Source: an uncultured virus (IMG/VR IMGVR_UViG_3300047673_000352) (taxonomy: Duplodnaviria; Heunggongvirae; Uroviricota; Caudoviricetes). From it: a DNA stretch of 64,000 nt. The translations under genes and the position numbers were made by a program. The DNA is taken from the IMG/VR virus record IMGVR_UViG_3300047673_000352; one strand, given 5' to 3'. The notes under the pieces were generated by a model. It ran no database searches and had not been told where the DNA came from. It saw only the letters and a program-made list of their open reading frames with translations. Of this stretch, positions 3,647 to 50,828 are shown in pieces (position 1 is the first letter of the stretch; every line of letters starts with the position of its first letter).

Positions 3647-4525
3647 TTAAGCTGAAGGGTTTGCGCTCGCCTTGACGTAAAACGGTATCTCGCGGCTGGT
3701 CAAATCGTACTCCAGCGACGATATAACGAAGGTCTGGTTGAGGCTAGGATTCATCTTAGATTCCAGCGTTGCCGCGCCTGCCAGCGTGATATTGGGATCG
3801 AAGAGCGTCATGAAGTCAACGCCCCATTCAGTCCACAGCGGCGTGCCAATAAACTCCTTCACAGTCACAACTTGCGCAGTCGAAATTACCTTGTTCACGT
3901 CCTTGACGTACAGCACATTGTTGTCGATGAACGCCGCGACGTTGGGCTTGTAGGCATCCTGTATGTTGACCAGAAGCTCTGCGACCAAATGCGTGCTCGC
4001 GAACATATTTGAAATCGGAACGCTGTCGCTGGACGTTTCGCAGACGACACTGCTCACTCCCATTTGCTTTCCGGCCCACTGAACATATTCCTTGAATGTT
4101 GCCTTGATTGGTGCCGGTTCGGTGATCCAGTTGAGCTTGTTCAGCTGCTGTGAATAGCACTCGATTCGCACTCCGATGTTTGGCGGTCCGTTGAAAGGCG
4201 ACACGAGCGCCACTTGGCCGCTGAAGATCGTCGTCGCAGTGTTCTTGCCTTGGTCATAATATCCAGCCTGTATCAGTACGTTGATGTAGCTTGCCGTGTA
4301 TCCTGGTTGACCGGTCTCCAAGTTGCGCTTGTTCCACGCCGTGAACTGCGACAGCAACCTTTCTCGAAGGTTTTGGGACAGGTTGAATACGTCGATGCTG
4401 CAGGTGTTCTGGATTGCTAAGGCGTCCTTTCGGATGCGCACGTGCATCTCCAGGGACTGGTCCAGGAGGACCGTTCCATTGGGCATGGCCAGTGAGACGT
4501 TAAGAACGCGGGTTCCCAGAGGCAT
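3647..4525 (-). CDS. Baseplate hub protein
   Basis: NTCSIDVFNL...IQAGY...IFSGQV motifs; lies between tape measure and spike genes. Confidence 0.75.
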   Translation of the reverse strand: MPLGTRVLNVSLAMPNGTVLLDQSLEMHVRIRKDALAIQNTCSIDVFNLSQNLRERLLSQFTAWNKRNLETGQPGYTASYINVLIQAGYYDQGKNTATTIFSGQVALVSPFNGPPNIGVRIECYSQQLNKLNWITEPAPIKATFKEYVQWAGKQMGVSSVVCETSSDSVPISNMFASTHLVAELLVNIQDAYKPNVAAFIDNNVLYVKDVNKVISTAQVVTVKEFIGTPLWTEWGVDFMTLFDPNITLAGAATLESKMNPSLNQTFVISSLEYDLTSREIPFYVKASANPSA

Positions 4526-8047: not shown

Positions 8048-10044
8048 TATGCGTACTCATAGACGATGATTTTACCAGGCCCGCCCGCAACCCCTGGGAT
8101 CGCACCGGTGCCACCGCCAGAGCCAGTACCCGCACCGCCCCAACCGGCTCCAGGCATAAGCGCAAAATTCGTAGGCGACGCCAAGATCATCCCCTGGCTA
8201 ATGATCACCCACGATCCAGTCAAGGTAGGTCCGCTCGAATTCAGAATGTTGCCGCCAGACGCGCTGCCGCCAGAACCAGAGAAGGATGCCGTTGCGCTGG
8301 TCGTCTGAGCGCCACTTGACCCGCCGCCGCCGCCTGCCGTGCAACCGCCGAATGTCGTGCTGCCGCCTGCTCCACCAGGAGCGCCGCCGCCAGACACGCC
8401 AGCGGCACCCGCTGCGCCGACCGTGTACGAGATGCCAGAGAATCCGCTGGTCATCCTGTGCCGAACGTATCCGCCCGCGCCGCCAGTGCCGGAAACACCA
8501 GCTTGTGATGCTGTGTTAGCTGGGAGGCCAGCGGAACCGCCGCCGCCGCCTTGCAGTTCAACGATGATGCTGTTTGTGCCTGCAGTCGGCGTGTACGTTC
8601 CACTGCTCGTAAGAACTTGAATGCCAATCAGCCGTCCTGGGATGCCAGTCAACGTTCCGGTCGCGCTCAGATTCGTGAACGCACCAGCGGCAGGCGTTGT
8701 TTGTCCAATCGGCGTGTTGTCCAGAGATGGAATCGAGAACGATCCAACCGTCAGCGTGCCGGTGATGTTGGCATTGCCGCCTACGTTAAGCGCGCCGCCT
8801 ACGCCTACGCCGCCTGCTACAACCAGCGCCCCGGTCGTTTTGGACGTGGAAGCGGTCGCAGAGTTCATCGCGACGTTGCCGCCAACCGTGAGCGCGCCGC
8901 TGACGTTCGCCAAGCCACTCGTGTACAGCGCACCGGTGATGCCGACTCCGCCAGCGACTACCAACGCACCGGTAATCGGACTCGTGGAAGCAGTCGCATT
9001 GTTGACCGTAGTTACACCGGTTATCGTCGCGGCACCGCCGACATTGATTGCGCCCGCGACGCCAACGCCGCCCGATACGACGAGAGCGCCGGTGGTGGCC
9101 GTGGTGCTTGCCGTAGTGTTCGTTACGGACGTTGCGCCCTGCAAGGTACTCGCGCCTGCAACGTTGAGAACGGACCCAACCCAGAGGCTTTTAGCGATGC
9201 CCACGCCGCCCGATACTTTCACAGCGCCGGTTGACGTGCTTGTCGAGTCGGTTGCGTTTGTCCAACTGATCGCGCCAGCGGCTGTGATCGTACCGCCCAC
9301 GTTCAGCGCGCCGCCGATGCCGACTCCGCCAGTGACGACCAGCGCGCCGGTCGTCGTGCTGGACGAGGTTGTGGCGTTGGAAACTGTCGTAATGCCCTGT
9401 AGCGTGGCCGCGCCAGCAACGTTGGCAGTCCCGCCAATCCAGACGTTTTGAGCCACGCCTACGCCACCGGCAACAGTCAGCGCGCCAGTGCTGGTGCTGG
9501 TGCTCGCCGTGGCATTGGAAACGTTGACTTGGCCGGATTGCGTGACTGTTCCGGATACATTAAGCGCACCGCCGACATACAGGGCACCAGCGACACCGAC
9601 GCCACCAGCAACGACAAGCGCGCCGGTCGTCGTGGACGTTGAAGCGGTCGTTGCGTTCGCGGCAATCTGCCCTGCCGCTGTGACGCCACCGGCGACGCCT
9701 ACGGAACCGCCAACGTTCACGCTGCCGGCAATCCCTGCCCCGCCCGCTACAACCAGCGCGCCGGTCGTCGTGGAAGTGGAAGCGGTCGTTGCGGTCGTCG
9801 TGATCGCGCCGCCTGCCGTGATGGACATGCCGACTTGAAGGCTCTTCGCGATCCCTGCCCCGCCAGCGACGGTAAGCGCGCCGGTTCCGGGTGATGTTGA
9901 ATCGGTCCCGCCCGTCACATAGACGAACGTGACGCCCTGAATCGTACCGCCAGTGATCGCAACGTTGCTGTTGTCTGCCTTTTCGGCAAACGACGCGTTC
10001 AGATCATCGGCTTTGAGTACCTCGCCTGCTGTGTAGTCGCTCAC
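8047..10044 (-). CDS. Repetitive fibre protein with glycine-rich C-terminal domain
   Basis: Nine STSxxTGALxVxGGxG-type repeats, DNTPIGQTTP linker, Gly-rich domain ending GKIIVYEY. Confidence 0.75.
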   Translation of the reverse strand: MSDYTAGEVLKADDLNASFAEKADNSNVAITGGTIQGVTFVYVTGGTDSTSPGTGALTVAGGAGIAKSLQVGMSITAGGAITTTATTASTSTTTGALVVAGGAGIAGSVNVGGSVGVAGGVTAAGQIAANATTASTSTTTGALVVAGGVGVAGALYVGGALNVSGTVTQSGQVNVSNATASTSTSTGALTVAGGVGVAQNVWIGGTANVAGAATLQGITTVSNATTSSSTTTGALVVTGGVGIGGALNVGGTITAAGAISWTNATDSTSTSTGAVKVSGGVGIAKSLWVGSVLNVAGASTLQGATSVTNTTASTTATTGALVVSGGVGVAGAINVGGAATITGVTTVNNATASTSPITGALVVAGGVGITGALYTSGLANVSGALTVGGNVAMNSATASTSKTTGALVVAGGVGVGGALNVGGNANITGTLTVGSFSIPSLDNTPIGQTTPAAGAFTNLSATGTLTGIPGRLIGIQVLTSSGTYTPTAGTNSIIVELQGGGGGSAGLPANTASQAGVSGTGGAGGYVRHRMTSGFSGISYTVGAAGAAGVSGGGAPGGAGGSTTFGGCTAGGGGGSSGAQTTSATASFSGSGGSASGGNILNSSGPTLTGSWVIISQGMILASPTNFALMPGAGWGGAGTGSGGGTGAIPGVAGGPGKIIVYEYA

Positions 10045-10679
10045 GATAGTCTGCTGGAATCAAGAATGAATGAGCCGCCCAGGTTGTCGATCAACGCGCC
10101 GTTGGCCGGTACTGTCGGAATGTATGCCGCGCTCTTGACTGCTTGGACCAGCGTCGCCAGCGGCACGACTGTCGGAGGCGTCTGGATGCTTACTCCGTAC
10201 ACCGAACTATCTGCGGCCTGTTCCGGTGCGTATCCGGAGTTGGCTGGCGGTTGCGCCTGCTCGAAGACCATGATGACGCGCGACGCCGATATCATTTCCC
10301 CTGTTTGCTCTACGTCCAAATGACTGAGGACGAGGTATGAGGTGATAATCGACTTGGTGTTAATGGATATTGTAACGGTCGTGTCCATGAACGTCGCAAT
10401 GACGTTCTCCAGCGTCGAGATGTCCGCGCAAAGAGCCGTAACCCGAAGGCGCGACGGCTCGATGATCTTGATTGCCTGAATGTCCTGTTCAAGAATCGTT
10501 TGATACGTTTCGGTGTCCGAAACCTGCTGGTTGGATATCGGCATTTCGGTGTTGGCGCTGGAGGATGAAACCTCAACGTCAACGATCCCCAGCTTGCTCC
10601 AGATAGTCGCGCCGGTATTCTCGTTCGTCGCAACGAACTTGGGCTTGCTGGTGAGAGTCGAAAGGATGGACTGGGGCAT
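10041..10679 (-). CDS. Tail/baseplate structural protein (Dit-like paralog)
   Basis: Tail-module position; shares EQAADSS with the neighbouring gene. Confidence 0.55.
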   Translation of the reverse strand: MPQSILSTLTSKPKFVATNENTGATIWSKLGIVDVEVSSSSANTEMPISNQQVSDTETYQTILEQDIQAIKIIEPSRLRVTALCADISTLENVIATFMDTTVTISINTKSIITSYLVLSHLDVEQTGEMISASRVIMVFEQAQPPANSGYAPEQAADSSVYGVSIQTPPTVVPLATLVQAVKSAAYIPTVPANGALIDNLGGSFILDSSRLS

Positions 10680-10680
10680 A

Positions 10681-11211
10681 TCAGAGTCCCAGTTGGCTGA
10701 CTACGTTCGCCGCAAAGGTTTGCACGCTGACCTTGGCGGCGTTGACCTGCTGGATGCCCTTGTCCATCAGCGACGAGTCTGCCGCCTGCTCAACAGAGGG
10801 CGGATTGGATCCATTTTGCGTCAGAATCTGCTTGAATGACATGCGCACCGGGTTCGCGCTGATGACGTCAGGCGTCTGCTTCACCTGCTCTTCGTCCGCC
10901 ATCATATTCGTCAGCACCAAGCCGCGCGACGTGATAGTGTACACGCCAGAGCGGTCCATCATCGCAGAGTTAATCATTGCCAAGTCATCCAGCGTCGCGC
11001 AGAAAACTTCAATCTCAACTATCGGAGACATGACGACGCGCGCATCAACGATGTTATTTCCGTCCTCTCGCATATGCCGCATGACGCGCGAGCGATAGCG
11101 GAACCGAACGCGCGAAACCTTCAGGCTTTGCGCGATGTTGAGGCCGGTCAAGCTGCTCACGATAGTCAGAGCGGGCTTGGACAGCAGACTGGATAGAATG
11201 CTGGCTGCCAT
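10681..11211 (-). CDS. Tail/baseplate structural protein (Dit-like paralog)
   Basis: H.REDG..IVD..V..P motif; tail-module position. Confidence 0.6.
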   Translation of the reverse strand: MAASILSSLLSKPALTIVSSLTGLNIAQSLKVSRVRFRYRSRVMRHMREDGNNIVDARVVMSPIVEIEVFCATLDDLAMINSAMMDRSGVYTITSRGLVLTNMMADEEQVKQTPDVISANPVRMSFKQILTQNGSNPPSVEQAADSSLMDKGIQQVNAAKVSVQTFAANVVSQLGL

Positions 11212-11213
11212 GA

Positions 11214-11711
11214 CTATAGAAGCGCCAGACCAGCGCGCAGAACGGTTGTGGCCAACTCTTTGAAGCTCTGTGCACCCGCGAACGTTCCGAAGGCAAAATG
11301 ATAAACGTTGCCCTTCTTCCGTCCGGCAGATGTTAAGCTGTCCGCTATAGCGCCGCTGAGCATCAAGCCGTCGCTCAACAGGACGCGCCCGCCGTCCGGA
11401 TACGATATGACCATTGACGTGGTATCAGGAAGCGGGAGAAGCTGCGGCGACGATTTGCGCGCCTGCAGCAATATCTTCAGGTTTATGTCGTCGTCAGTGT
11501 TTGCGTTGACGCCGATGGACAAGAGCACAGGCGAGGTCTTGTCAAACGTGAAAATACTGCCGTCATAAAGTTTTTCGAAGCCGCTGACTTCAAGTTGCTC
11601 GATAGTCAGCGGGTCTTCATCATCAGCAAATGACGTGACCTGAAACCCCACCGGAAAGCTGGCTGTGCTTACGATGGTAATTCCAGTGCCGAATCCGCTG
11701 ATGTCGATCAT
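11214..11711 (-). CDS. Second tail-tube-like protein
   Basis: Clear paralog of 12630-13091 (DIS.FG...TSFADD.DPL). Confidence 0.75.
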   Translation of the reverse strand: MIDISGFGTGITIVSTASFPVGFQVTSFADDEDPLTIEQLEVSGFEKLYDGSIFTFDKTSPVLLSIGVNANTDDDINLKILLQARKSSPQLLPLPDTTSMVISYPDGGRVLLSDGLMLSGAIADSLTSAGRKKGNVYHFAFGTFAGAQSFKELATTVLRAGLALL

Positions 11712-11942
11712 TTAGGCGTCCGTATGTTCCGTGCTCGCGTCGGTGATGGCTTGCTCTGCCGCTTCGGCTTCGAGTTCCGCTGCCGTCTTGTGCTGGACTA
11801 CCGGCTCAGGCGGTGCGCCGGTCGAAATGGCGTGCGCTCCTAGTGCCGCGACGCTGGGCGCGAAGGAAGGCGAAGCAACCGGCGCGCTGGGTGCAGGCGC
11901 GTGAATGGTGATAACGCCGTGGGCAGACTGGTTGGCGGGCAT
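11712..11942 (-). CDS. Small Ala/Pro-rich hypothetical protein
   Basis: Fills the gap in the tail operon. Confidence 0.5.
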   Translation of the reverse strand: MPANQSAHGVITIHAPAPSAPVASPSFAPSVAALGAHAISTGAPPEPVVQHKTAAELEAEAAEQAITDASTEHTDA

Positions 11943-11946
11943 CGTC

Positions 11947-12297
11947 TTATCCTTGAATGGTTGTTGGTCCGTATATCGTGTGAACTCGCGCGACGTAGCT
12001 GAAGTCTTCGCCGCTGATCGTGATAGTCAGCGATTCGATGCTCAGAACGTCTGGGCATTCCAGAATGTTCTTTGCTATGGACGCTCGCGCTGCATCGTAA
12101 TCCGGCTGCGGCGTGAAGACCGTGCCGAAGTAATCCACGCCGTCAGACGTGTTGTACTGGTTCTCGCCCAGGCGCATCTGGCCCTTCTGGGTAAGGTTCT
12201 GCTCGCACGCCACGATCCCAGAGATGAGGCTTAGGTTGCGCCCGTCTGGCAGATACAGGTCGTTGTTCTCGTTGCAGGCGAAGGTCTGCGTGGCCAT
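11947..12297 (-). CDS. Baseplate wedge / sheath initiator (gp25-like)
   Basis: GE..YNT..GVDY and V.TIYG motifs. Confidence 0.7.
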   Translation of the reverse strand: MATQTFACNENNDLYLPDGRNLSLISGIVACEQNLTQKGQMRLGENQYNTSDGVDYFGTVFTPQPDYDAARASIAKNILECPDVLSIESLTITISGEDFSYVARVHTIYGPTTIQG

Positions 12298-12623
12298 CAG
12301 ATGACTCCCTGCTGCAGCGCGTCCAGGAACTCTGCCAACTCGTCCTGCGGCATGTAGTACAGGTTGCAGGAGTTGCCGAAGTTCGTCCAGTCAGCGTCCG
12401 AATCAAAGCAGAAGTTGCCGAGATTCGGAGCGTACATATAGCTGTACTGCATCAGTGGAATCCCACCAAAGCATCGCACTCCATCAACGATCTTTACACC
12501 GTTTTTGGAGATGTCCGCGCACATGTGGCTGACGGCCTGGTAGACGTGAACCGTCCACAAGACGCCATCCGCATTAAACGAAACGGACTGATTTGCGACC
12601 GGCGACAGCGGGATTGCCAGCAT
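12297..12623 (-). CDS. Small baseplate protein
   Basis: IPLSPVANQS...G.F.F...FG....LYY pattern seen in myophage baseplate proteins. Confidence 0.65.
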   Translation of the reverse strand: MLAIPLSPVANQSVSFNADGVLWTVHVYQAVSHMCADISKNGVKIVDGVRCFGGIPLMQYSYMYAPNLGNFCFDSDADWTNFGNSCNLYYMPQDELAEFLDALQQGVI

Positions 12624-12629
12624 GGTACG

Positions 12630-13091
12630 TTAGCTGCCCGAAGTCGGATTTTGGCGCGATACTTGGGCGAACTTGAACGCGTAGCGCTTGGACTTCGCGC
12701 GGCCAGCCGCTGAGCCTGACTGGACTGCCGGTGCGACGACCAACTTGCCCTCGCTGCAGGTCACCTTCATGCCGTTCGGATAGCAGAAGACGATGCCGAT
12801 TTGATCGCGCGCCGACGACTTGCCCTTGGCGACGCGGTTGGCGTCCATAAGCGCGGTCAGGTTCAGGTCGTCCTGCGATTGCGGGATGACGTTCATCACA
12901 ATCTCGATCAGCTGCGGGCGCGACCACGTGATTGCATCGCCGTTCGGACCCATCGACATATCTGCGATGTCCAAGTCAGGCGAGTCGAGCGGGTCTGCAT
13001 CGTCAGCAAACGATGTGATCGTCGTCGTGTTCGGAAAGGTCTTGTCAGCAGTGAGGATCGCCGACAAGCCAAAAATGCTGATGTCTTCCAT
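12630..13091 (-). CDS. Tail tube protein
   Basis: 153 aa directly downstream of the sheath gene. Confidence 0.85.
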   Translation of the reverse strand: MEDISIFGLSAILTADKTFPNTTTITSFADDADPLDSPDLDIADMSMGPNGDAITWSRPQLIEIVMNVIPQSQDDLNLTALMDANRVAKGKSSARDQIGIVFCYPNGMKVTCSEGKLVVAPAVQSGSAAGRAKSKRYAFKFAQVSRQNPTSGS

Positions 13092-21975: not shown

Positions 21976-24339
21976 TTATGCCTTGGGCGGCATCGCGCAC
22001 TCACCGGCTTCGAGCCAGTTCTTGAAGTCGTCCATTGACATCTTCTGGCACGAGTCATAACCCTTGAAGTTTTCATCGTGAGCAGCGTTGTACGCGGCGA
22101 TGGCTGACTCTTCGTCGTCATACCCGATCATCGTCTTGTACTCGTCAAACTCGCCGTTGTCGTCCTTCTGACTGATCACGAATACGTCTTGGGAACGCGC
22201 GTTGGGACCGATGAAGCAATCCACTTCGTCACCGTCCGCGCCGTCGAAGCCCTTGATGTACCCGTAGTGATCAGGCATCTCCACAGACCACTCGCTGCCG
22301 TCCATGTTCATCCCTTCGCGGACAGTGCCGCGCGGATTCTCGATGACGATGTTCAAGCCGTTCAAGCGCATCTTTGGAAGCTTGTGCGCCGCCATCGGGC
22401 CGATCACCTTTGCATCGCCAGCGCGTTGGCTTGATGGGACGACGCTGGGCTTGGACGTGCGACTGGTGCCAGGGCGCGTTCCTTGGATCGCGGGACCGTC
22501 CTGCGGCTTATTCTGTCCCAATACAGCGTGCGCCAAAGCGAGGATGGCGAGTTGCATCGGGTCGGCGTTTTGCTGCGCGCCGCCCTTTCCGGACACTAAA
22601 CCGTGCGCGATCACAGGAATCAACGCCTGCAACGGGTCGCCAGCGAGCGCTCCAGCGCCTTCTACGGTGTCCGTTTCGGAGCCTTCCGCGCCGGGTTCGC
22701 CCTTCTTCGCTACCATCGCACCGGCATTGGCTTCGGTGTTGACGGCGTTTGCCTTCTCCTGCTCCGAACCGGCCTTTTGCAGCGCTGCGATATTCTCAGG
22801 CGACATGCCAGGCGTCTGGTTTGCGGGCGCGTCTTCAAGGCGGTTGTAGCCGCTGTGCTCGTCGTCCTTAACCCGGTTGCGCTCTTCGTCGGCAGAGATG
22901 ACGCCAGCGTTGATCAGGGCAATGCCGGTGTTCGCCTTCTTGTCGTTGAGCTCAGCGCGCTCTGCGGCAGTGATCGAGTCCACAGAGTTGCAGACGACTT
23001 CAACTTCAGTGGCGATTCCTTCGCTGCGGCAAAGGATATCATAGTGCCTTTCGAGCATCGGCATCATCACGTGCTCTTGCACTGACTCAAGCTCTTCGTG
23101 ATAGCTCTTCATCTCGAATTCGCCAGTGGCGTTGAAGCCCTTCGGTGACGTCCCAAGGAGCTTCGTGGCAGGCGTACGCGCGATGGCCGCGACCAGCTGA
23201 TACTGGTTCATGATGATGGAGTCGAAGTCTGACATATTGGTGTCAAACTGCTCCATCGCTTCCTCTTTTCCCAGCACCTTCACGCCGTGGTTGTCGCGGT
23301 ATCGAATCCACGTCAGCAGGCGTTGCTCGAAGCCTTCCTGGTCCGCCATTACTTTGTCCAGGTCGGCGTGAATGGCCATCGTTCGTTTCGACATCGCCAT
23401 CAGGGGCGCTTCGTTCGCCGTCCGCTCAGCGGCATAGACCCGTTCATAGATGCGCTGCGTCAACGGCACGCCGCCGAAGATGTACGTTGGCTTCAGAATG
23501 TCGGCAGGCTGCGGGCCGCGAACGATGCACAGATGCGAGCGGTGATACTTCTTCCCGCTGATGACCCAGAATTCAGGGTCGTAAAAGTGAATGTCTGACG
23601 GATCGCTGGTGCCGCGAGTCGTCATCACCGGCATCATCCAGTACGGGTCGATTTGCGAGATGCCGTCATACGATCCCTTTGTCACGCCGTCGATGTTGAA
23701 CGGCTTTTCGTAGTACAAAGGGTCTTCAGAGCGAACCTTGAAAATGGCAACGCGAATGCCGAAGACGTTTTTGAACCGGTTCAGTTCGATCAAGTTGGCC
23801 TTGACCGAATAGCGCTTGTCAGCGGACAGAATCAGGTCGTGTGCTTCCTTGTCCAAGTCGTCGCCGCCGCGCGCCTTAATGACCCAGCCGTTGCGCACCG
23901 CGTCCTCACCGGACATCGAGCACGCCTTGTCCACCAGCCAGTGTTGGGCGATGATCGCGCACGCCTGATAGCCGATGAAGCTCTGGGACATGTACCAGCT
24001 TTGAAGACCGACTGGCACGGTGTACTCAGACGGACTGGCCTTTAGCATTCCTGTGCCATCGCTGTCGTCCATGATCGCGCCCTGACTCTTGAGCTTCAGG
24101 GCCGCGTCGCCAATCGCCTTGACGGTCGTTACGGAGTCGTCGCCAGCGAGCGCATCGGACACAGGGAAGTCGGTGGCGCTACGCAGCTTGAATTGCGGGC
24201 CGTGGTCAATCCAGTTTTTGCGATTCTGGATTGGGTCGAGCGGATCGACCGCGAGAATTTCTGCCCGCTTCTCTTCTTCCGTAGCGACTGCTTGCGGCTG
24301 GGCGCGGGTGAATAGCTTGCGAAGAAGGGATGGGATCAT
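21976..24339 (-). CDS. Portal protein (DUF1073-like) with C-terminal inorganic-pyrophosphatase-like domain
   Basis: DA.R.GW, H.S, IP.TKL.G.SP.GFNATGE portal motifs; C-terminal IENPRG...HYGYI...GADGDEVD. Confidence 0.85.
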   Translation of the reverse strand: MIPSLLRKLFTRAQPQAVATEEEKRAEILAVDPLDPIQNRKNWIDHGPQFKLRSATDFPVSDALAGDDSVTTVKAIGDAALKLKSQGAIMDDSDGTGMLKASPSEYTVPVGLQSWYMSQSFIGYQACAIIAQHWLVDKACSMSGEDAVRNGWVIKARGGDDLDKEAHDLILSADKRYSVKANLIELNRFKNVFGIRVAIFKVRSEDPLYYEKPFNIDGVTKGSYDGISQIDPYWMMPVMTTRGTSDPSDIHFYDPEFWVISGKKYHRSHLCIVRGPQPADILKPTYIFGGVPLTQRIYERVYAAERTANEAPLMAMSKRTMAIHADLDKVMADQEGFEQRLLTWIRYRDNHGVKVLGKEEAMEQFDTNMSDFDSIIMNQYQLVAAIARTPATKLLGTSPKGFNATGEFEMKSYHEELESVQEHVMMPMLERHYDILCRSEGIATEVEVVCNSVDSITAAERAELNDKKANTGIALINAGVISADEERNRVKDDEHSGYNRLEDAPANQTPGMSPENIAALQKAGSEQEKANAVNTEANAGAMVAKKGEPGAEGSETDTVEGAGALAGDPLQALIPVIAHGLVSGKGGAQQNADPMQLAILALAHAVLGQNKPQDGPAIQGTRPGTSRTSKPSVVPSSQRAGDAKVIGPMAAHKLPKMRLNGLNIVIENPRGTVREGMNMDGSEWSVEMPDHYGYIKGFDGADGDEVDCFIGPNARSQDVFVISQKDDNGEFDEYKTMIGYDDEESAIAAYNAAHDENFKGYDSCQKMSMDDFKNWLEAGECAMPPKA

Positions 24340-44039: not shown

Positions 44040-45629
44040 TCAGAACTGCTCGTGGACGGGCTTGCCTTCTTCTCTGTTGCCTTCCTCGCCGTCATCCTTG
44101 TAATCCATTTCGCCAAGCCTCTTGTTGAAGTCTGCAATACTCTCAAACTTCGGGAACAAATAGCCCGTATAGCCGCCAGAGAACACGTGTTCAACCGCGC
44201 CCAACGAGTACATCTTGTTCCGCAGATGCTTCCAGTTAGGTCGGACGTGCTTGAGGTTGTCCATAAAGAAGCGCTTGAACTCGCCTGTGCGAACTCCAAC
44301 GCACTTTTTGTCCTCTCCCTGCTTCTGCCATTCGCACTTCGGCCCTTCCTTCAGCATCGGAACTAGATAGACCTCAAACACATCATCGCCAATCGTTCCG
44401 CTGTCGCGTTCCATCTCGGCATTCGAGAAGTCCTTGACCGCCTTAATGACCTCGACCACAAAGTGCTCATAAGCGCCCAGCCCATTCTCGTCAAACCAGT
44501 GCGCGGCTTCGGCCATTAGCTGCCAAACCTCATCTTCGAAGGACTCCCAATCACTGTCGCTTACAGCAAAGTCGGAGCGCCAAGCCGGTTTCCCCAGCTT
44601 ATCAGGAAGCTGGCCGCAGAACATCGGATAGAAGCGCCGGTTGCCGGAGTCGTCCCGCTGCATGCCCTCGTACCTGTTACCGTCCATCACGGTAATCCAC
44701 TGGCGCATCTGGTTGAACGTGCCTTCGAACTTGTAGTGCATCTGATCGCCAGGACGCGTGATGAAGTCCTTGATCTTGTTCAAGTCGCCGCGCGTGAAGC
44801 CGGTCATTTCGCCGACCGAAGCAATAACCGACTGGCCTGTGATGTTGCGCAGGAACTCCAGCTTGTCGCCGTCCAGATTCAGCTGCACCGAGTCTGCATC
44901 TTCGTTGCCGGTGATGATCTTGCAGATGGCCTTCGAGAAGCGCGACTTGCCGCAACCTTGCGCGCCGAACAGCGACAGAACGATTGGCGCGAGCGATCCA
45001 GGCATCATGACGCGCGAATATAGGGACAGCCAAAAGTACTGTCCAAAGTCGCGGTTCAATTCTGTGTCGCGACAATCGAACATTTCAATCAGCTTCGTCC
45101 GCATCCGCTCCTTGCCATCCCACTCTGGAATGCGTGCCTCCACGTGATTGATCAGGTCATTGCGCTCGTTCATCATGGCCCACTCTTTAACAGCCTCACG
45201 CGCGCCCTTAGCCGATACGCCCTTCAGACCAGCGGCAGAGAATGCCTCTACCCAGCGCACGACCGGGTACTGGTCATCAATCACGCGCCCTTCGTGGTCC
45301 ACGATTCGACCGCGAAAGTGATCGCGATGAGGCGTGTTATCGCCGCCGTCACCGAACAGGGCCTGCAGGACCGTCCATTTATTCTCGTCGGTCATCTGTG
45401 GCTGCGACACGAACATATCGCCAACGCGCACCTTCTTGACGTCCGGATAGTCGATCATCCCTGCCGTGAAGAGAGCGCGCGCCCGCTTCACGATATCAAT
45501 TTCCTTCCGTAGCTCCTTAGCCGTTGCTTCAGCCTCTTCGGCCTCAATTACTTTAGCAGCGCGCAGCTGCTCGACTTCCTTTTCTGCGCGCTGCGACTCT
45601 TCGCCTTTGCTCGTTGGCCACTTTGCCAT
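44040..45629 (-). CDS. VapE/VirE-like P-loop replicative helicase
   Basis: WDG..R, Walker A GAQGCGKS, IKDFIT, D.SGNRRFYP. Confidence 0.85.
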   Translation of the reverse strand: MAKWPTSKGEESQRAEKEVEQLRAAKVIEAEEAEATAKELRKEIDIVKRARALFTAGMIDYPDVKKVRVGDMFVSQPQMTDENKWTVLQALFGDGGDNTPHRDHFRGRIVDHEGRVIDDQYPVVRWVEAFSAAGLKGVSAKGAREAVKEWAMMNERNDLINHVEARIPEWDGKERMRTKLIEMFDCRDTELNRDFGQYFWLSLYSRVMMPGSLAPIVLSLFGAQGCGKSRFSKAICKIITGNEDADSVQLNLDGDKLEFLRNITGQSVIASVGEMTGFTRGDLNKIKDFITRPGDQMHYKFEGTFNQMRQWITVMDGNRYEGMQRDDSGNRRFYPMFCGQLPDKLGKPAWRSDFAVSDSDWESFEDEVWQLMAEAAHWFDENGLGAYEHFVVEVIKAVKDFSNAEMERDSGTIGDDVFEVYLVPMLKEGPKCEWQKQGEDKKCVGVRTGEFKRFFMDNLKHVRPNWKHLRNKMYSLGAVEHVFSGGYTGYLFPKFESIADFNKRLGEMDYKDDGEEGNREEGKPVHEQF

Positions 45630-45635
45630 TTGTCG

Positions 45636-45944
45636 TTAGTTCCTGGTGGCGCTAAAATTGACCTTCGTGAAGTAGTTCTCCACCCATGCGGTTGCGGGCT
45701 GAGACTTCACTCCGTACTCCTTTACTTCTTCCTTCGTCGGCAGAAGCACGGACGGCTGTACGCGCGACTTCGCCGGTGCCATAATCTCGACTTCGATCAG
45801 CGCGCCCGGTGCGCAATACGGCTCCCACCTATCCATCGCTTCCTGGAACGCTAGGCAAAGGTCTTTCGCCTTCACCGTGTCCACGATCCTGCCGTCCTTC
45901 TTGACTACGAATTGCTTCAGCTTTGCTTCGTTGTTCTTTGCCAT
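45636..45944 (-). CDS. Hypothetical protein
   Basis: Between primase and helicase genes. Confidence 0.55.
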   Translation of the reverse strand: MAKNNEAKLKQFVVKKDGRIVDTVKAKDLCLAFQEAMDRWEPYCAPGALIEVEIMAPAKSRVQPSVLLPTKEEVKEYGVKSQPATAWVENYFTKVNFSATRN

Positions 45945-45956
45945 GATCGGTCTCAC

Positions 45957-47081
45957 TCACGCTTCGTAATATTCGTTGAACCACTCGTTGTCGCGGTTGG
46001 CTTCTTCCAATTGATCCGCGATGTGCTCGATGACGATATGATCAACGAACACGGACCACGTACGCTTGTTGTCCTTGCGGCAGGTGTCGTGCCCGCACCC
46101 AAACACATACTCGTATTCAGCGCCAGGGATTGAGCCACGGAAATACGCCCCATACGGGTCGCCGTTCGTATGCTCGTTTCCCCACGGGCAGGCTATACGA
46201 TACTTCCCACTCATGTTTTGCGATACTTCACCGCCGCTGCCCTCGCCCATCTTTGCGCGTGAAGTGATCCTTATCGCCATGTCGAGCCAGATCGCATCGA
46301 ACTTGCGTTCGTAGTTCATCGACTCCAATTCAGCCGGGTCTAGTTTCCGCTCGACTGGCACCACGATAGGAAAACCGAACGCAGATGCGATGCGATCCAT
46401 GCTGTATCGGCGGCTGTAGTCAGCCCGAACCAGTCCGACACTGAAACACCTGCTCTTATTGCTTCCCACGCTGGCAAGGTCAGGATACTTGAACTGGCCA
46501 TCTTTGCCACGTTTGTTATTGACGCCTGCAGGCATCCGTCCGTACCGGCTAATATCCCGTATGGTGCCGTCGCCGCCCTTGTCCACGAGTACGTGTTCAA
46601 CGAAGCCCAGCAAGAAAGCCTTGAACCGTTTGCGATCTGGCGTTGGGTTGTCGAGAAAGTACCACAGCTGGTGATTGCCGGGTGATGTCTCCACGATAGC
46701 GGTTGGCTCCAGGACGCCGCATACTGTTTCAAGGTCCAATCCGCCTTTGCTTCCCTTTCCGGTTCCAATGTCGTCCACCATGAGAGCAAGTCCGTGCCCA
46801 AATGAAGCCTCGCCGCGCCAGTAACGCAGAGCGCCCGTTTTGGGATTTGGAGTCTTGATGGATGAAGAGATACAGACATAGCAATTCTCGTCCATGGGGA
46901 TTTGACGGCCAGCTTTGTACGGTGTGGGCCACCAGCCAGCGTTGAGTTTCTTTCCGGACGCGTCTGTTTGAACGGTTGCTTCATCAGCATAACCGGCCAT
47001 TACTCGTTCGTCGTCGGGAAGGCCCTTGCCGAGTTCCGCAAGGAAGAGTTCGCACGCCTCAAGGCGTTGTCGTTGATTCAC
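45957..47081 (-). CDS. RepB-like (AEP superfamily) DNA primase
   Basis: LMVDDIG, PTAIVETSPGNHQLWY, R.GRMPAG.N.K; C-terminal CPW..EHT...C.H..C Zn site. Confidence 0.8.
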   Translation of the reverse strand: MNQRQRLEACELFLAELGKGLPDDERVMAGYADEATVQTDASGKKLNAGWWPTPYKAGRQIPMDENCYVCISSSIKTPNPKTGALRYWRGEASFGHGLALMVDDIGTGKGSKGGLDLETVCGVLEPTAIVETSPGNHQLWYFLDNPTPDRKRFKAFLLGFVEHVLVDKGGDGTIRDISRYGRMPAGVNNKRGKDGQFKYPDLASVGSNKSRCFSVGLVRADYSRRYSMDRIASAFGFPIVVPVERKLDPAELESMNYERKFDAIWLDMAIRITSRAKMGEGSGGEVSQNMSGKYRIACPWGNEHTNGDPYGAYFRGSIPGAEYEYVFGCGHDTCRKDNKRTWSVFVDHIVIEHIADQLEEANRDNEWFNEYYEA

Positions 47082-47348
47082 AGCTGTCTGCCTCGTTACT
47101 ATATTGTTGCAGGTCGTTATTACCGCTCAACCTGGAAAGCGGGCCGGTCTAAATTTCTTAGATCGGATTATAGGACCGCCTGAGTGGTACAATAATACAA
47201 CTTTCCAACTATTATTTACCGCGTATTAAATAGGAGAAAGGCGTTCTTTCTGACGCTTAAACTTCCACCGCTCAGCGATATACTCAACTCGCTCGCTCAT
47301 GTGAACGGGTCCGGACATACAGCCGGTGAACAAGTGAAAGGAAGAAGT

Positions 47349-48128
47349 ATGGGCACAATATCAAGGCGCGTTCTATTAGACGGCTCTGTGCGGTTCCAAG
47401 CTAAGGTGCGCAGAAAAGGGCACAAAACCCTCAGCGCGACGTTTCGTGAAGAGTCTATGGCAAAGGCCTGGGCTGACATTCAAGAGGTCCGGTTGGATGG
47501 CTTCTCGCTCGATATCAACTTGGACACGCTAAGTAGCATCACGGTTGGAGATATCATAAAGAAGTACGCCGACGAAGTAGCGCCGAAGCACCACGGCTAC
47601 GAAAGCGAGCGCTTCACTATCCAGCGCTGGCTCAGATTGCCGTTTAGTCGCTCACCGGTCAGCGCCTTCGATCAGTCAGCGTTAGAGATGTATGCGCGCT
47701 GGCGCTCTTCTGCTGTCACAAAATCAACGCTCCGAAGAGAATTCAACATACTGTCTGCGGTATTCAGGAACGCGACTTCGATTGGCGTCCGTTGCCATGA
47801 ACTCAACTTCAGATCATTGACCGCTGATGAACTTATCGGCATCTATGTGCTTTCATTTCCGAACGGCATGAAGTACGTGGGTCAGTCGGTCAGCATATCA
47901 TCCCGCCTGTACCAGCACGAGTACGCCTTAAGGCGCAACCGCCACTACAACGCGCGCTTGCAGTCTACAGCCAATCAATTCGGAATAGACGCGATGAGTG
48001 TCGATGTGTTCCGGTGCAGTCGCGAACAGCTTAACGACGAAGAGCAAAGGATCATAGAACTCGTCGCGCCTGATCGACTTCTCAACCACGTAAACGCTCC
48101 ATGCACAAGAATAAAGGCCCAATCATGA
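47349..48128 (+). CDS. Chimeric protein: tyrosine-integrase N-terminal and core-binding domains fused to a GIY-YIG endonuclease
   Basis: FQAKVRRKG....SATF....AKAWA; TVGDII.KY..EV.P; STLRRE.NILSAVF; then GIY...YVGQS....R..QH...E...LN. Confidence 0.8.
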   Translation: MGTISRRVLLDGSVRFQAKVRRKGHKTLSATFREESMAKAWADIQEVRLDGFSLDINLDTLSSITVGDIIKKYADEVAPKHHGYESERFTIQRWLRLPFSRSPVSAFDQSALEMYARWRSSAVTKSTLRREFNILSAVFRNATSIGVRCHELNFRSLTADELIGIYVLSFPNGMKYVGQSVSISSRLYQHEYALRRNRHYNARLQSTANQFGIDAMSVDVFRCSREQLNDEEQRIIELVAPDRLLNHVNAPCTRIKAQS

Positions 48129-49276
48129 ACGCGCCCGCTGAGCTCAGCTTTAATCCTGAGCAGCAAGAAGGTATTCAACGAATCGTCGCCTGGTTTAAGG
48201 GCTGGCAAGACCGTAAGCACCGCAAACAGATTTTCGCGCTCGCGGGCCGCGCCGGTACGGGCAAGACCTCGTTGGCGCAGGCGGCTGCGACCAGCTGCAC
48301 GAGCGAGTACCGAGTGGTGTTCATCGCGCCGACCGGAAAGGCTGCGAGCCGGTTGCGCCAGAAGGGCTGCAAGGGCGCAAAGACCCTGCACCAGTTCGTC
48401 TATAACGTGCGCGGCGAGGACGAAGACGGCGACCCGATATTTGTGGAGAAGGGCTTCAATAAGGAAACGCCGCTGCTTATCGTGCTGGATGAAGGCTCGA
48501 TGGTGGGCGAGTACGATATGAAGGCGCTGCTGCGGTTCAATATTCCGGTGCTGGTACTCTGCGACTTGGGCCAGCTGCAACCGGTTAAGGCACCGCCCTC
48601 GCTGACGCCTGAACACATCGACTTCGAACTGACCCAGATCATGCGTCAGGCCGCTGAATCGAACATCATACGCGCTGCCGGATTCGTTCGCGACGGTAAG
48701 CGGTTGCCGTTGCGCGAGTATCCGGATGTAAGAGTGCGGGCCGGAAATCCGCCGCTGGACGAGTTGATCGCGCACTCCGGCATTGATTCGCAAATTCTGT
48801 GTTCGTACAACAACACCAGGGTGGCCGTGAACCGGAAGATTCGGGAAGCTCTGGGATTCACCGGCGACACACCGAATGTGGGCGAGAAGGTCATGTGCTG
48901 GTTCAATCAGCACGCCCATAACTTCATGAACGGTGAGCAGGGCATTGTGCTGGGATTCGATACGCTGCGCGACGACGAACTCAACGAAGACGAACCGGAT
49001 GAACTCCAGATCATGCGGCTGAAGTCGTTGACCGATGGCCGCGAGCGTCGTGTGAAGTTCAACCCGTTGTCATTCCACCGCGATCCTGAAGTGTCGGGAC
49101 CGGCGCTGAAGGGCGTGGGCGGCTTCCAGTTCGGCTGGTGCTGCACGATCCATAAGAGCCAGGGCAGCGAGTGGGACAACGTGCTGGTGTTTGAAGAGAT
49201 GATGGGTGACTATGCAAAGATGCAATATACCGCCTATACCCGCGCCGCTAAGGTTTTGACTGTTTACAGAGGATAA
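48125..49276 (+). CDS. Dda/RecD-like SF1B helicase
   Basis: GRAGTGKT, APTGKAA, DEGSMV, D.GQL.PV, TIHKSQGSEW, YTA.TRA. Confidence 0.92.
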   Translation: MNAPAELSFNPEQQEGIQRIVAWFKGWQDRKHRKQIFALAGRAGTGKTSLAQAAATSCTSEYRVVFIAPTGKAASRLRQKGCKGAKTLHQFVYNVRGEDEDGDPIFVEKGFNKETPLLIVLDEGSMVGEYDMKALLRFNIPVLVLCDLGQLQPVKAPPSLTPEHIDFELTQIMRQAAESNIIRAAGFVRDGKRLPLREYPDVRVRAGNPPLDELIAHSGIDSQILCSYNNTRVAVNRKIREALGFTGDTPNVGEKVMCWFNQHAHNFMNGEQGIVLGFDTLRDDELNEDEPDELQIMRLKSLTDGRERRVKFNPLSFHRDPEVSGPALKGVGGFQFGWCCTIHKSQGSEWDNVLVFEEMMGDYAKMQYTAYTRAAKVLTVYRG

Positions 49277-49450
49277 CTAAGCAATGAGCAAACAATCCGA
49301 CTCGATGACCACGGCCCAATCGGTCTGCCTGGCTGCGGTAATCATCGCGATCATCGCAGCAGCGGTCGCACTCGTAATCGCCGGTGACGGCGTTTGGGTT
49401 ATGTGGTTCATCATCCTTCTTGGCCTCATTTTCTTTTAGGAGTTCATATC

Positions 49451-49666
49451 ATGTCAGGTCTTCAAATGAAGTATTTCGTCGTTAAGCCTGCTGGTGACGA
49501 CACGTACGCCAAGGCGAGTCGCGCGGCCATTCGCTGCTACGCTCGCCATATCGAAGCTGCCAACCCTGAGTTTGCCAAGGAGTTGAACGAATGGGCGCAG
49601 CGCGAAGAGGAAGCGAGCGATGACCGGCTGGCCAATCCGCACGCGATCCATCCGGTGACGCCATGA
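49451..49666 (+). CDS. Hypothetical protein
   Basis: AGGAG RBS; KYFV.KP..DD.YA. Confidence 0.6.
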   Translation: MSGLQMKYFVVKPAGDDTYAKASRAAIRCYARHIEAANPEFAKELNEWAQREEEASDDRLANPHAIHPVTP

Positions 49667-49908
49667 CCATCAACTCCACGACCGCTTGGCAGTCGGACCT
49701 CTCACCCGGCACGATCTTCAAGACGCGTGAAGAGGCGCAGGAATTCGAGCGCGTCATTATTCCGCGCAAACTCGTTTCCAGCGTCATTGACGAGTACGGC
49801 TCAAGCGGTTGCGTCTGCACCGATTATGACGACGCCATCGACAAGATCGTTGAAGCGTTAGGTGAACTTTGGAGTGTGCAAGGATACGTTAAGCCACGAA
49901 GTGGTTGA
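49663..49908 (+). CDS. Hypothetical protein
   Basis: ATGA coupling. Confidence 0.55.
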   Translation: MTINSTTAWQSDLSPGTIFKTREEAQEFERVIIPRKLVSSVIDEYGSSGCVCTDYDDAIDKIVEALGELWSVQGYVKPRSG

Positions 49909-50030
49909 CGGGCGCGGTTCTCGCGTCAGTTAGGATATCTGAACACTTCGAATTTGAAGCGCGCAGGTATAATTCAACCACAGGCAAACGAATTGCCTAA
50001 CCCATCGAAAACCTTAAGGAGAATTAAACA

Positions 50031-50828
50031 ATGTCGCACGGTCATCACCACAACGTATCGGACGCGGGTCACTCGCACAACATCGCTCAGTCGGTTCAAA
50101 CGGCTGTGCAAGAAACGTCGGTGGAGTTGACCGCCGAACAGAAGAAGGCGCAGGACGACGCCGCGAAGCAAGCAGCGAAAGAAGCCGCGAACGCCGCCAA
50201 GGAAGCCAAGCGCAAGGCTGCTGCCGAAGAGCGCGAAGCGAAGAAGGCAGCGAAGCTCGCAGAGCGCGAAGCCGCGAACGCGGAGAAGGAAGCAGAGCGC
50301 CAGGCGAAGGCCGCAACGCGCGAAGCAGAAAAGGCGCAGAAGGCTGCTGAACGCGCCGAAAAGCTCGCTGCCGAGAAGGAAGCGAAGAAGGCCGAACGCG
50401 AAGCCGCAAAGCTGGCGAAGAAGGCTGAAACGGACGCGGCCAAGGAAGCGAAGAAGGCCGAAACGGCAGCTGCGAAGGAAGCCGCGAAAGAAGCGCGCAA
50501 GGCTGAAGTGGCACGCCGCGCGGCCATGGTCGAAGAGCGCAAGGCGCAAACGAAGATCGACGGCGAGCGCCGCAGCAAGGCCACGCATGTCGTCTACACC
50601 GGCAACGGCATCAGCAACCCGCAGTCCACGTCGATCCGTGGCAAGGTTCTCGAACACATCCGCGAGAACTACAGCGTGGGCGACAAAATCGCCATCGAAA
50701 CGCTCGCGAAGGATTGCAAGCCGCTGCTGTACGGCGCGTCCATCCGTTCGTTCCTGTCGAAGCTGGAAGAGCGCTGCCACCTGGACTTCGTGACCGAATC
50801 GACGGACGAGCCGGCAGCAGCTGAATAA
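50031..50828 (+). CDS. Ala/Glu/Lys-rich coiled-coil protein with small globular C-terminal domain
   Basis: Low-complexity AEK repeats; TATAAT at 49968, AAGGAG RBS and its own terminator. Confidence 0.8.
   Translation: MSHGHHHNVSDAGHSHNIAQSVQTAVQETSVELTAEQKKAQDDAAKQAAKEAANAAKEAKRKAAAEEREAKKAAKLAEREAANAEKEAERQAKAATREAEKAQKAAERAEKLAAEKEAKKAEREAAKLAKKAETDAAKEAKKAETAAAKEAAKEARKAEVARRAAMVEERKAQTKIDGERRSKATHVVYTGNGISNPQSTSIRGKVLEHIRENYSVGDKIAIETLAKDCKPLLYGASIRSFLSKLEERCHLDFVTESTDEPAAAE

Follow-up and report, generated by a model that had tools for sequence, protein, structure and literature searches.

What would a phage do with a protein that begins like a tyrosine integrase and ends like a GIY-YIG nuclease? 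A gene predicted to encode such a fusion lies between the primase and helicase genes of an uncultured virus, within a 64,000-nucleotide stretch of DNA that was analyzed as a whole and that we call the window. A preliminary description of this DNA had read the product as an att-site-directed nuclease acting against prophages, satellites or islands, and had given a homing endonuclease with an unusual targeting domain as the alternative.

The fusion gene is intact and apparently expressed

The reading frame of the fusion gene is not interrupted anywhere across its 259 codons. An AGGAAG-type ribosome-binding site lies 5–6 nt 5′ of the ATG, and the stop codon overlaps the start of the Dda-like helicase gene in the sequence ATGA (48125–48128). 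These features had been pointed out in the preliminary description and were all seen again; judged from them, the gene is apparently expressed and coupled to the helicase. The divergent neighbors on the other side are the primase gene and then a primase/helicase gene. An independent public run yielded a contig (compared over 47183–48325 of the window) that includes the gene and both of its junctions with 0 differences, and the fusion gene is therefore not an assembly chimera. Scans for promoters and terminators returned nothing above chance level. Additionally, a search for repeats in 46950–48300 gave only short matches of two or three copies, with no flanking direct repeats and no arm-like arrays found. 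The features of the locus are collected in Table 1.

Table 1. Positions in the window of the fusion gene, its predicted domains and the genes that border its slot.
Feature	Position	Strand	Remarks
Fusion gene (259 aa)	47349..48128	+	integrase-type DNA-binding head and predicted GIY-YIG nuclease
Arm-type (AP2-like) DNA-binding domain, residues 1–54	47349..47510	+	three-stranded sheet and helix, as at integrase N-termini
Core-binding (SAM-like) helical domain of tyrosine recombinases, residues 58–150	47520..47798	+	structure superposition and PHROG_1
Linker with R-x-L-T-x-x-E, residues 151–163	47799..47837	+	alignments; low pLDDT
Predicted GIY-YIG nuclease domain (I-TevI/Seg type), residues 164–250	47838..48098	+	profiles, alignments, model, PDB matches
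Leader and ribosome-binding site	47105..47348	+	in gene-free relatives directly 5′ of the helicase start codon
Dda-like helicase	48125..49276	+	phrog_325, E 2.4e-85; tblastn to relatives from residue 1 or 7
DNA primase, divergent, other border of the slot	45957..47081	-	phrog_4861, E 4.8e-167; 60–65% identity to PB1-like primases

The N-terminal half is an integrase head

The first ∼160 residues had been assigned to the N-terminal and core-binding domains of integrases, and both sequence and fold agree with this assignment. The N-terminal half matches the PHROG_1 integrase over residues 7–144 (E 1.3e-8), and BLASTP aligned residues 1–155 with a full-length, 328-residue Paraburkholderia integrase that carries the recombinase catalytic domain PF00589 (29% identity, E 2e-15). 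Two integrases, P0004 and P0006, align with the fusion protein starting at its residue 1. Among the 170 proteins collected, 135 match the N-terminal half only.

An AlphaFold model made with 34 sequences reached a pLDDT of ∼90 over residues 1–150. Within it, residues 1–54 (pLDDT ∼95) form three strands (2–8, 14–20 and 28–32) and one helix (35–50), and superpose on AP2/ERF domains (AtERF1, 1gcc) with a Z of 6.0, which is middling for a small common fold. Superposition by VIA-align placed residues 58–162 on the core-binding/SAM-like domain 2kd1 (Z 11.9, rmsd 2.4 over 101 residues) and on Tn1549 Int (Z 11.8, rmsd 2.1 over 96 residues), and the core-binding domain on 3lys (Z 11.2), the three superpositions spanning 95–101 residues at an rmsd of 2.1–2.4. 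Residues 1–159 also match residues 14–172 of lambda Int with a Z of 11.2, but at an rmsd of 9.1, indicating that the two domains are arranged differently. Judged by sequence and modeled fold, the N-terminal half is a homologue of the arm-type and core-binding domains of integrases.

The alignment to integrases stops at about residue 155. Just before the junction, the R-x-L-T-x-x-E stretch matches the opening of the catalytic domain in the integrase homologues, and PF00589 itself gave no match in the fusion protein at E up to 10. The catalytic domain thus gives way to the GIY-YIG domain after this linker, at the point where the replacement had been described. Because the catalytic domain is absent, the fusion protein is not an integrase and strand exchange is impossible.

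The C-terminal half is a GIY-YIG domain of the I-TevI type

Profile searches with the C-terminal half recovered the group I intron endonuclease model TIGR01453 (E 7e-10) at 39.3 bits, short of the 56.05 cut-off and over the nuclease part of the model only. The protein encoded in the window, P0001, scored below the cut-off of the Pfam GIY-YIG family PF01541 as well (E 7.6e-4; 20.2 against 22.6 bits), and its homologue P0005 lies above that cut-off with 29.0 bits. PF01541 was the only Pfam family listed for P0001 at E up to 10, the T5orf172 family (PF10544) giving no match.

In the full-length model the C-terminal half had a pLDDT of only ∼33–56, and it was therefore folded separately. Folded alone on a 20-sequence alignment it reached 90.6, with the GIY-YIG order of elements: two strands, two helices, a strand and a helix. 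Its best PDB matches were the I-TevI catalytic domain (1mk0/1ln0; E 2.5e-4 to 1e-3, TM 0.64–0.78, probability 1.00), followed by the GIY-YIG domain of UvrC. Foldseek with the full-length model returned no match at E 0.001 or better, and a phmmer search of PDB sequences with the entire protein turned up nothing beyond a chance match. Structure prediction of both halves, which the preliminary description had proposed as a check, thus returned an integrase fold for one (pLDDT ∼90) and a GIY-YIG fold for the other.

The 20-sequence alignment also bears out the statement that the GIY, YVG, Arg, His, Glu and Asn positions are intact. G164, Y166, Y176, G178, R186, H190 and E232 are invariant in all 20 GIY-YIG sequences, and H199 and N246 are nearly so. 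The catalytic positions Y166, Y176, R186, H190, H199, E232 and N246 are all invariant across the three fusion proteins that we compared (P0001, P0003 and P0005). With the help of a pairwise alignment, we take these positions to be the counterparts of the numbered catalytic residues of I-TevI. The C-terminal half is, by these comparisons, a GIY-YIG domain of the I-TevI type with a complete active site, and nuclease activity is predicted. Among the matches listed, the nearest relatives of this half are 35–44% identical to it and consist of an N-terminal nuclease with a long C-terminal tail.

The fusion is very rare and probably arose once

A HMMER search of 1.84 billion representative proteins produced 3,852 matches at E 0.001 or better. 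Among the best 150 of these 3,852, both halves were covered only in the protein's own cluster and in P0005, so that the architecture amounts to two clusters at 50% identity among the matches listed. P0005 has 267 residues and is 40% identical to the fusion protein over residues 1–254; P0003, recovered in a word-indexed search from a 2.1-kb contig, is 88% identical. A search of 50,697 phage records gave 141 matches to one half and none that covers 80% of the fusion protein. The ESM Atlas held no large cluster with the fusion, its nearest clusters being N-terminal fragments of integrases (score 0.82), and a megablast of 45000–50000 against the phage collection found no near-identical DNA; the nearest record (G001), a fragment of 34.6 kb, does not extend to this region. 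In the collections searched, the architecture is very rare. The portions of the literature consulted yielded no description of an integrase head on a GIY-YIG nuclease or of a homing enzyme with the targeting domains of a tyrosine recombinase, and the main text of a 2006 GIY-YIG survey has 0 mentions of 'integrase' (PMC1564403).

A tree of 126 N-terminal halves unites the three fusion proteins in one clade (SH-aLRT 95), with 333-residue integrases of Burkholderia cepacia and B. multivorans as their nearest neighbors. Among the matches listed, identity of this half reaches at most 41% to full-length integrases and 45% to one fragment of 106 residues. A free tree of 23 nuclease domains, in which branches are long, did not place the fusions together; a single clade of the C-terminal halves was nevertheless not rejected (AU p 0.29). 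The junction falls at an identical position in all three proteins. Because the N-terminal halves form a clade, a clade of the C-terminal halves is not rejected and the junction position is shared, one old fusion is the simplest account. Such an event would have given rise to a small family, members of which later reached two or more slots within this group of phages.

The window belongs to a PB1/E217-like myovirus

The phage is of the PB1/E217-like myovirus type, as indicated by Pfam families for E217 gp28, gp29, gp32, gp38 and gp41 together with a portal and a terminase. Its primase is 60–65% identical to those of Luteibacter phage Pluto, Burkholderia phage WTB, Xanthomonas phage XcP1 and Pseudomonas Pbunaviruses. 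In the 64-kb window, neither an integrase catalytic domain nor a further homing-type nuclease came up among 80 ORFs searched with Pfam and 20 searched with PHROGs. By the labels of the sequencing runs, the material is from the rhizosphere. The longest contig that carries the fusion protein measures 71,208 bp, leaving ∼7 kb of genome outside the window.

Several other features of the window and its relatives deserve mention in their own right. The portal protein (21979–24339, minus strand) combines PF06381 over residues 124–470 with a C-terminal, inorganic pyrophosphatase-like domain (PF18823 InPase, residues 652–777, E 2.6e-45). On the minus strand, 10044–13091 holds paired paralogues of E217 baseplate and tail-fibre families, namely two Gp38_E217 genes (10044–10679 and 10684–11211) and two E217_Gp32 genes (11217–11711 and 12633–13091). 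A 265-residue phrog_4765 protein (50031–50828, plus strand), also conserved in the related contig L004, contains a long and highly charged Ala/Lys/Glu repeat in its middle. The plus-strand segment 52116–56911 encodes a polynucleotide-kinase-like protein, a thymidylate-synthase-like protein, a second kinase/phosphorylase-like protein and a FabG-like reductase; the same set is present in L004, and the cluster may constitute a thymidine hypermodification pathway. Lastly, the Pseudomonas phages 6917 (OL362268.1, 54452–56717) and vB_PaeM_SMS12 (MN615700.1, 56085–57249) show the primase match in two pieces with extra hypothetical ORFs beneath. The split match in some Pbunaviruses may reflect an insertion within the primase, for example an intron or a homing gene.

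The gene is a precise insert at the helicase start

Nine related loci, viral or metagenomic, were fetched via their helicases (59–74% identity): L004, L008, L009, L011–L015 and L017. Two of them came from a metagenome scan with the helicase. L012–L015 and L017 have identical scores and are probably one phage, so the nine loci represent ∼4 independent lineages. None of the nine has the fusion gene between primase and helicase. Eight have a gene-free gap of ∼210–485 bp: 485 bp in L008 and L009, where no plus-strand ORF of 50 residues occurs, ∼265 bp in L011 and ∼210–225 bp in L012–L015 and L017. The ninth, L004, carries an unrelated 151-residue ORF (3648–4103, plus strand), with no Pfam or PHROG family, in the slot that the conserved leader and the start of the helicase enclose. 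The slot looks like a hot spot for accessory genes.

The DNA 5′ of the fusion gene identifies the point of insertion. The 244 bases at 47105–47348, together with the ATG, align with L011 3243–3494 (166/254 identical; local alignment score 62 against a shuffled maximum of 15), and the alignment ends on the ATG of the L011 helicase. Against L008 3246–3489, 153/246 positions are identical (score 46, shuffled maximum 14) and the alignment ends 12 nt before the ATG. Because the leader aligns up to or near the helicase ATG of the relatives, the fusion gene is seen to be an insert, ∼776 bp long, that sits precisely at the start of the helicase gene. From these alignments the gene is predicted to use the former leader and ribosome-binding site of the helicase, and the helicase to be read now by translational coupling.

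A second slot is found in L004, a 71.8-kb viral contig syntenic with the window. Both share the order primase, Dda helicase, phrog_4765, phrog_4828, kinase, thymidylate-synthase-like, kinase and FabG-like. The fusion protein of L004, P0005, is encoded elsewhere in the genome, its gene ending 2 bp 5′ of the polynucleotide kinase gene, and at that place the window has only a 74-residue ORF. Both copies are low in G+C: 0.523 for the fusion gene against 0.57 for the window, and 0.432 for the L004 copy against 0.542 for its surroundings.

The closest empty allele shares only ∼74% identity in the helicase, and no near-identical genome without the fusion gene was found among the loci fetched; the target site therefore cannot be read off. 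Contigs of four runs (X4–X7) contained no joint that skips the gene, which says nothing on the absence of such a joint, as contigs drop rare variants. The first 60–120 nt of the helicase gene are conserved at 0.45–0.68 against L004, L008, L009 and L011, compared with ∼0.7 for the rest. We rejected this as a marker of the target site since gene starts often vary.

A free-standing homing endonuclease gene is the favored reading

The clade to which the nuclease belongs, the precision of the insert, the alleles without the gene, the use of a second slot and a G+C below that of the surroundings together lead us to favor, with moderate confidence, the reading that a lytic PB1/E217-like myovirus carries a free-standing homing endonuclease gene. 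The fusion gene is probably a selfish, mobile DNA-cutting gene. The alternative named in the preliminary description is thereby the one to which insertion polymorphism, movement between slots and low G+C point. Homing endonucleases are known to shuffle their DNA-binding modules. On the other hand, presence and absence together with variation in slot are also the pattern of any accessory phage gene: L004 has an unrelated ORF in this slot, and phage WTB has several small genes between its primase and helicase. No characterized GIY-YIG homing enzyme is known to have the head-first, nuclease-last order and the short linker.

Under the homing reading, the protein would act in cells co-infected by a gene-bearing and a gene-free phage. 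In the gene-free relative, the two integrase-type domains would bind a bipartite site situated at the leader/helicase junction or in its vicinity and, given the shortness of the linker, the GIY-YIG domain would cut nearby. The gene-bearing genome would then serve as the template for recombinational repair, by which the gene would be copied into the cut genome. The carrier would be immune either because the insert splits the site by separating the leader from the helicase start, or because its site has diverged.

An Odn-like nuclease that binds arm or core sites of a host prophage, satellite or island, cuts the DNA of that element and so rids the phage of a competitor or parasite, and that is kept for its benefit to the phage and not through homing, is in our judgment unlikely. 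We likewise hold it improbable that the protein serves as a counter-weapon whose integrase head guides cutting of arm or core sites in prophages, satellites or defence islands as these excise or replicate during infection. What speaks for such a role is that the head is a true integrase homologue and that its nearest full-length relatives (∼41% identity, among the matches listed) come from Burkholderia, Paraburkholderia and Trinickia genomes. A tRNA scan around the integrase genes of four loci found a tRNA-Val gene at a distance of 86 bp in L022 and a tRNA at ∼5–6 kb in L020 and L023, with none in L019. There is also the precedent of Odn from the vibriophage ICP1, which cuts the satellite origin and has a head 42% identical to satellite RepA_N (PMC8263062). 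Another source describes phage nucleases that mirror the variety of satellite RepA_N (PMC10448857). The identity of our head to full-length integrases is in the same range, and with no more than 42% between the head of Odn and its donor, a shared specificity is compatible with such a distance.

The remaining evidence runs against an anti-element role. The fusion heads are each other's closest relatives, which indicates one old capture and no repeated captures that track a target. Among the matches listed from 1.84 billion representatives, no integrase is more than 45% identical to the head, and there is no sign of recent capture. No cognate element was found. Full-length integrases were located in Burkholderiaceae, some of them beside tRNA genes, as the preliminary description had suggested looking for, but their att-side DNA bears no similarity to the phage slots: the tRNA- and integrase-adjacent DNA of L020, L022 and L023 gave only chance matches of 9–11 nt (E 0.2 or worse). 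Additionally, the gene is missing from most relatives, and its nuclease belongs to the classical PF01541 family instead of the T5orf172 type of Odn. The claim of an att-site-directed nuclease against prophages, satellites or islands accordingly finds no support in the single clade of N-terminal halves, their identity of at most 41% to full-length integrases and the homing-like context of the gene.

Two further readings fare worse. I-TevI also represses its own promoter, and the fusion gene, which is coupled to the helicase and comes first after the divergent intergenic region, might encode a domesticated DNA-binding regulator or replication factor that binds the primase/helicase control region as a repressor or a site-specific nicking factor. 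A description of I-TevI as both endonuclease and repressor (PMC10448857) fits this idea, which we nonetheless consider very unlikely. The gene is absent from the slot in 9 of 9 related loci and has a homologue in another slot, which rules out a core regulator. A search of 46950–48300 found no candidate binding sites that recur, and the catalytic residues are all retained. In known integrases, arm-type and core-binding domains recognize specific sequences, which argues against a head with loose DNA affinity. Such a head is part of a scarcely credible reading, a general nuclease against unmodified host DNA with the phage's own DNA shielded by thymine hypermodification: downstream genes in the window for a thymidylate-synthase-like protein, two P-loop kinases and a FabG-like protein would suit it, as would the hypermodified thymine in Pbunaviruses reported in a 2025 preprint (PMC12191111), but DNA modification is only putative in the phage with the fusion gene, and relatives with the same putative modification genes carry the fusion gene only sporadically.

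Comparison with known systems

If the protein is active, two classes of mobile-element enzymes can trade parts, and the fusion would be a natural case of integrase-type recognition driving a double-strand cut in place of strand exchange. This would be of relevance to nuclease engineering and to the question of how phages gain new specificities. With two clusters, the fusion is probably of small biological reach, except if the anti-element reading is true; the Odn principle would then have a second, independent example, directed at integration sites where Odn is directed at replication origins.

The closest parallel to the homing reading is offered by I-TevI and the Seg enzymes of T4-like phages. 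They share the nuclease fold and catalytic residues of the fusion protein, are modular with a separate DNA-binding part, and are encoded by small genes that lie between conserved DNA-metabolism genes in some relatives and not in others. In contrast to I-TevI and Seg, the fusion protein has its binding module N-terminal of the nuclease and not C-terminal. Its linker comprises ∼13–18 residues, whereas that of I-TevI is long. The fusion protein also scores below the TIGR01453 cut-off, and P0001 in addition below that of PF01541. While the binding module of the fusion is derived from an integrase, the nearest GIY-YIG relatives carry repeat-rich C-terminal tails.

On the side of the head, lambda Int, Tn1549 Int and the Burkholderiaceae integrases are homologous over residues 1–155 and have the same folds; PF00589 is what the fusion protein lacks by comparison. 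Odn (Gp88) of vibriophage ICP1 is similarly built, with an N-terminal head borrowed from another mobile element and a homing-type nuclease at the C-terminus, and identity of head to donor is ∼40% in both proteins. However, the nuclease of Odn is of the T5orf172 type and that of the fusion protein is classical GIY-YIG. The donor (PLE RepA) and target (PLE origin) of Odn are both known, whereas no cognate element was found for the fusion protein, and the distribution of its gene looks like homing.

Lastly, the HNH-AP2 homing endonucleases (Magnani et al. 2004; IPA-HNH of ICP1-like phages) join an AP2-type DNA-binding domain to a homing nuclease (PMC10448857). The likeness lies in the three-stranded sheet of the AP2-type fold, on which residues 1–54 of the fusion protein superpose at Z 6.0. 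In the HNH-AP2 enzymes an N-terminal HNH nuclease is followed by a C-terminal AP2 domain, whereas in the fusion protein the AP2-like domain is part of an integrase head, stands together with a core-binding domain and is joined to a GIY-YIG nuclease.
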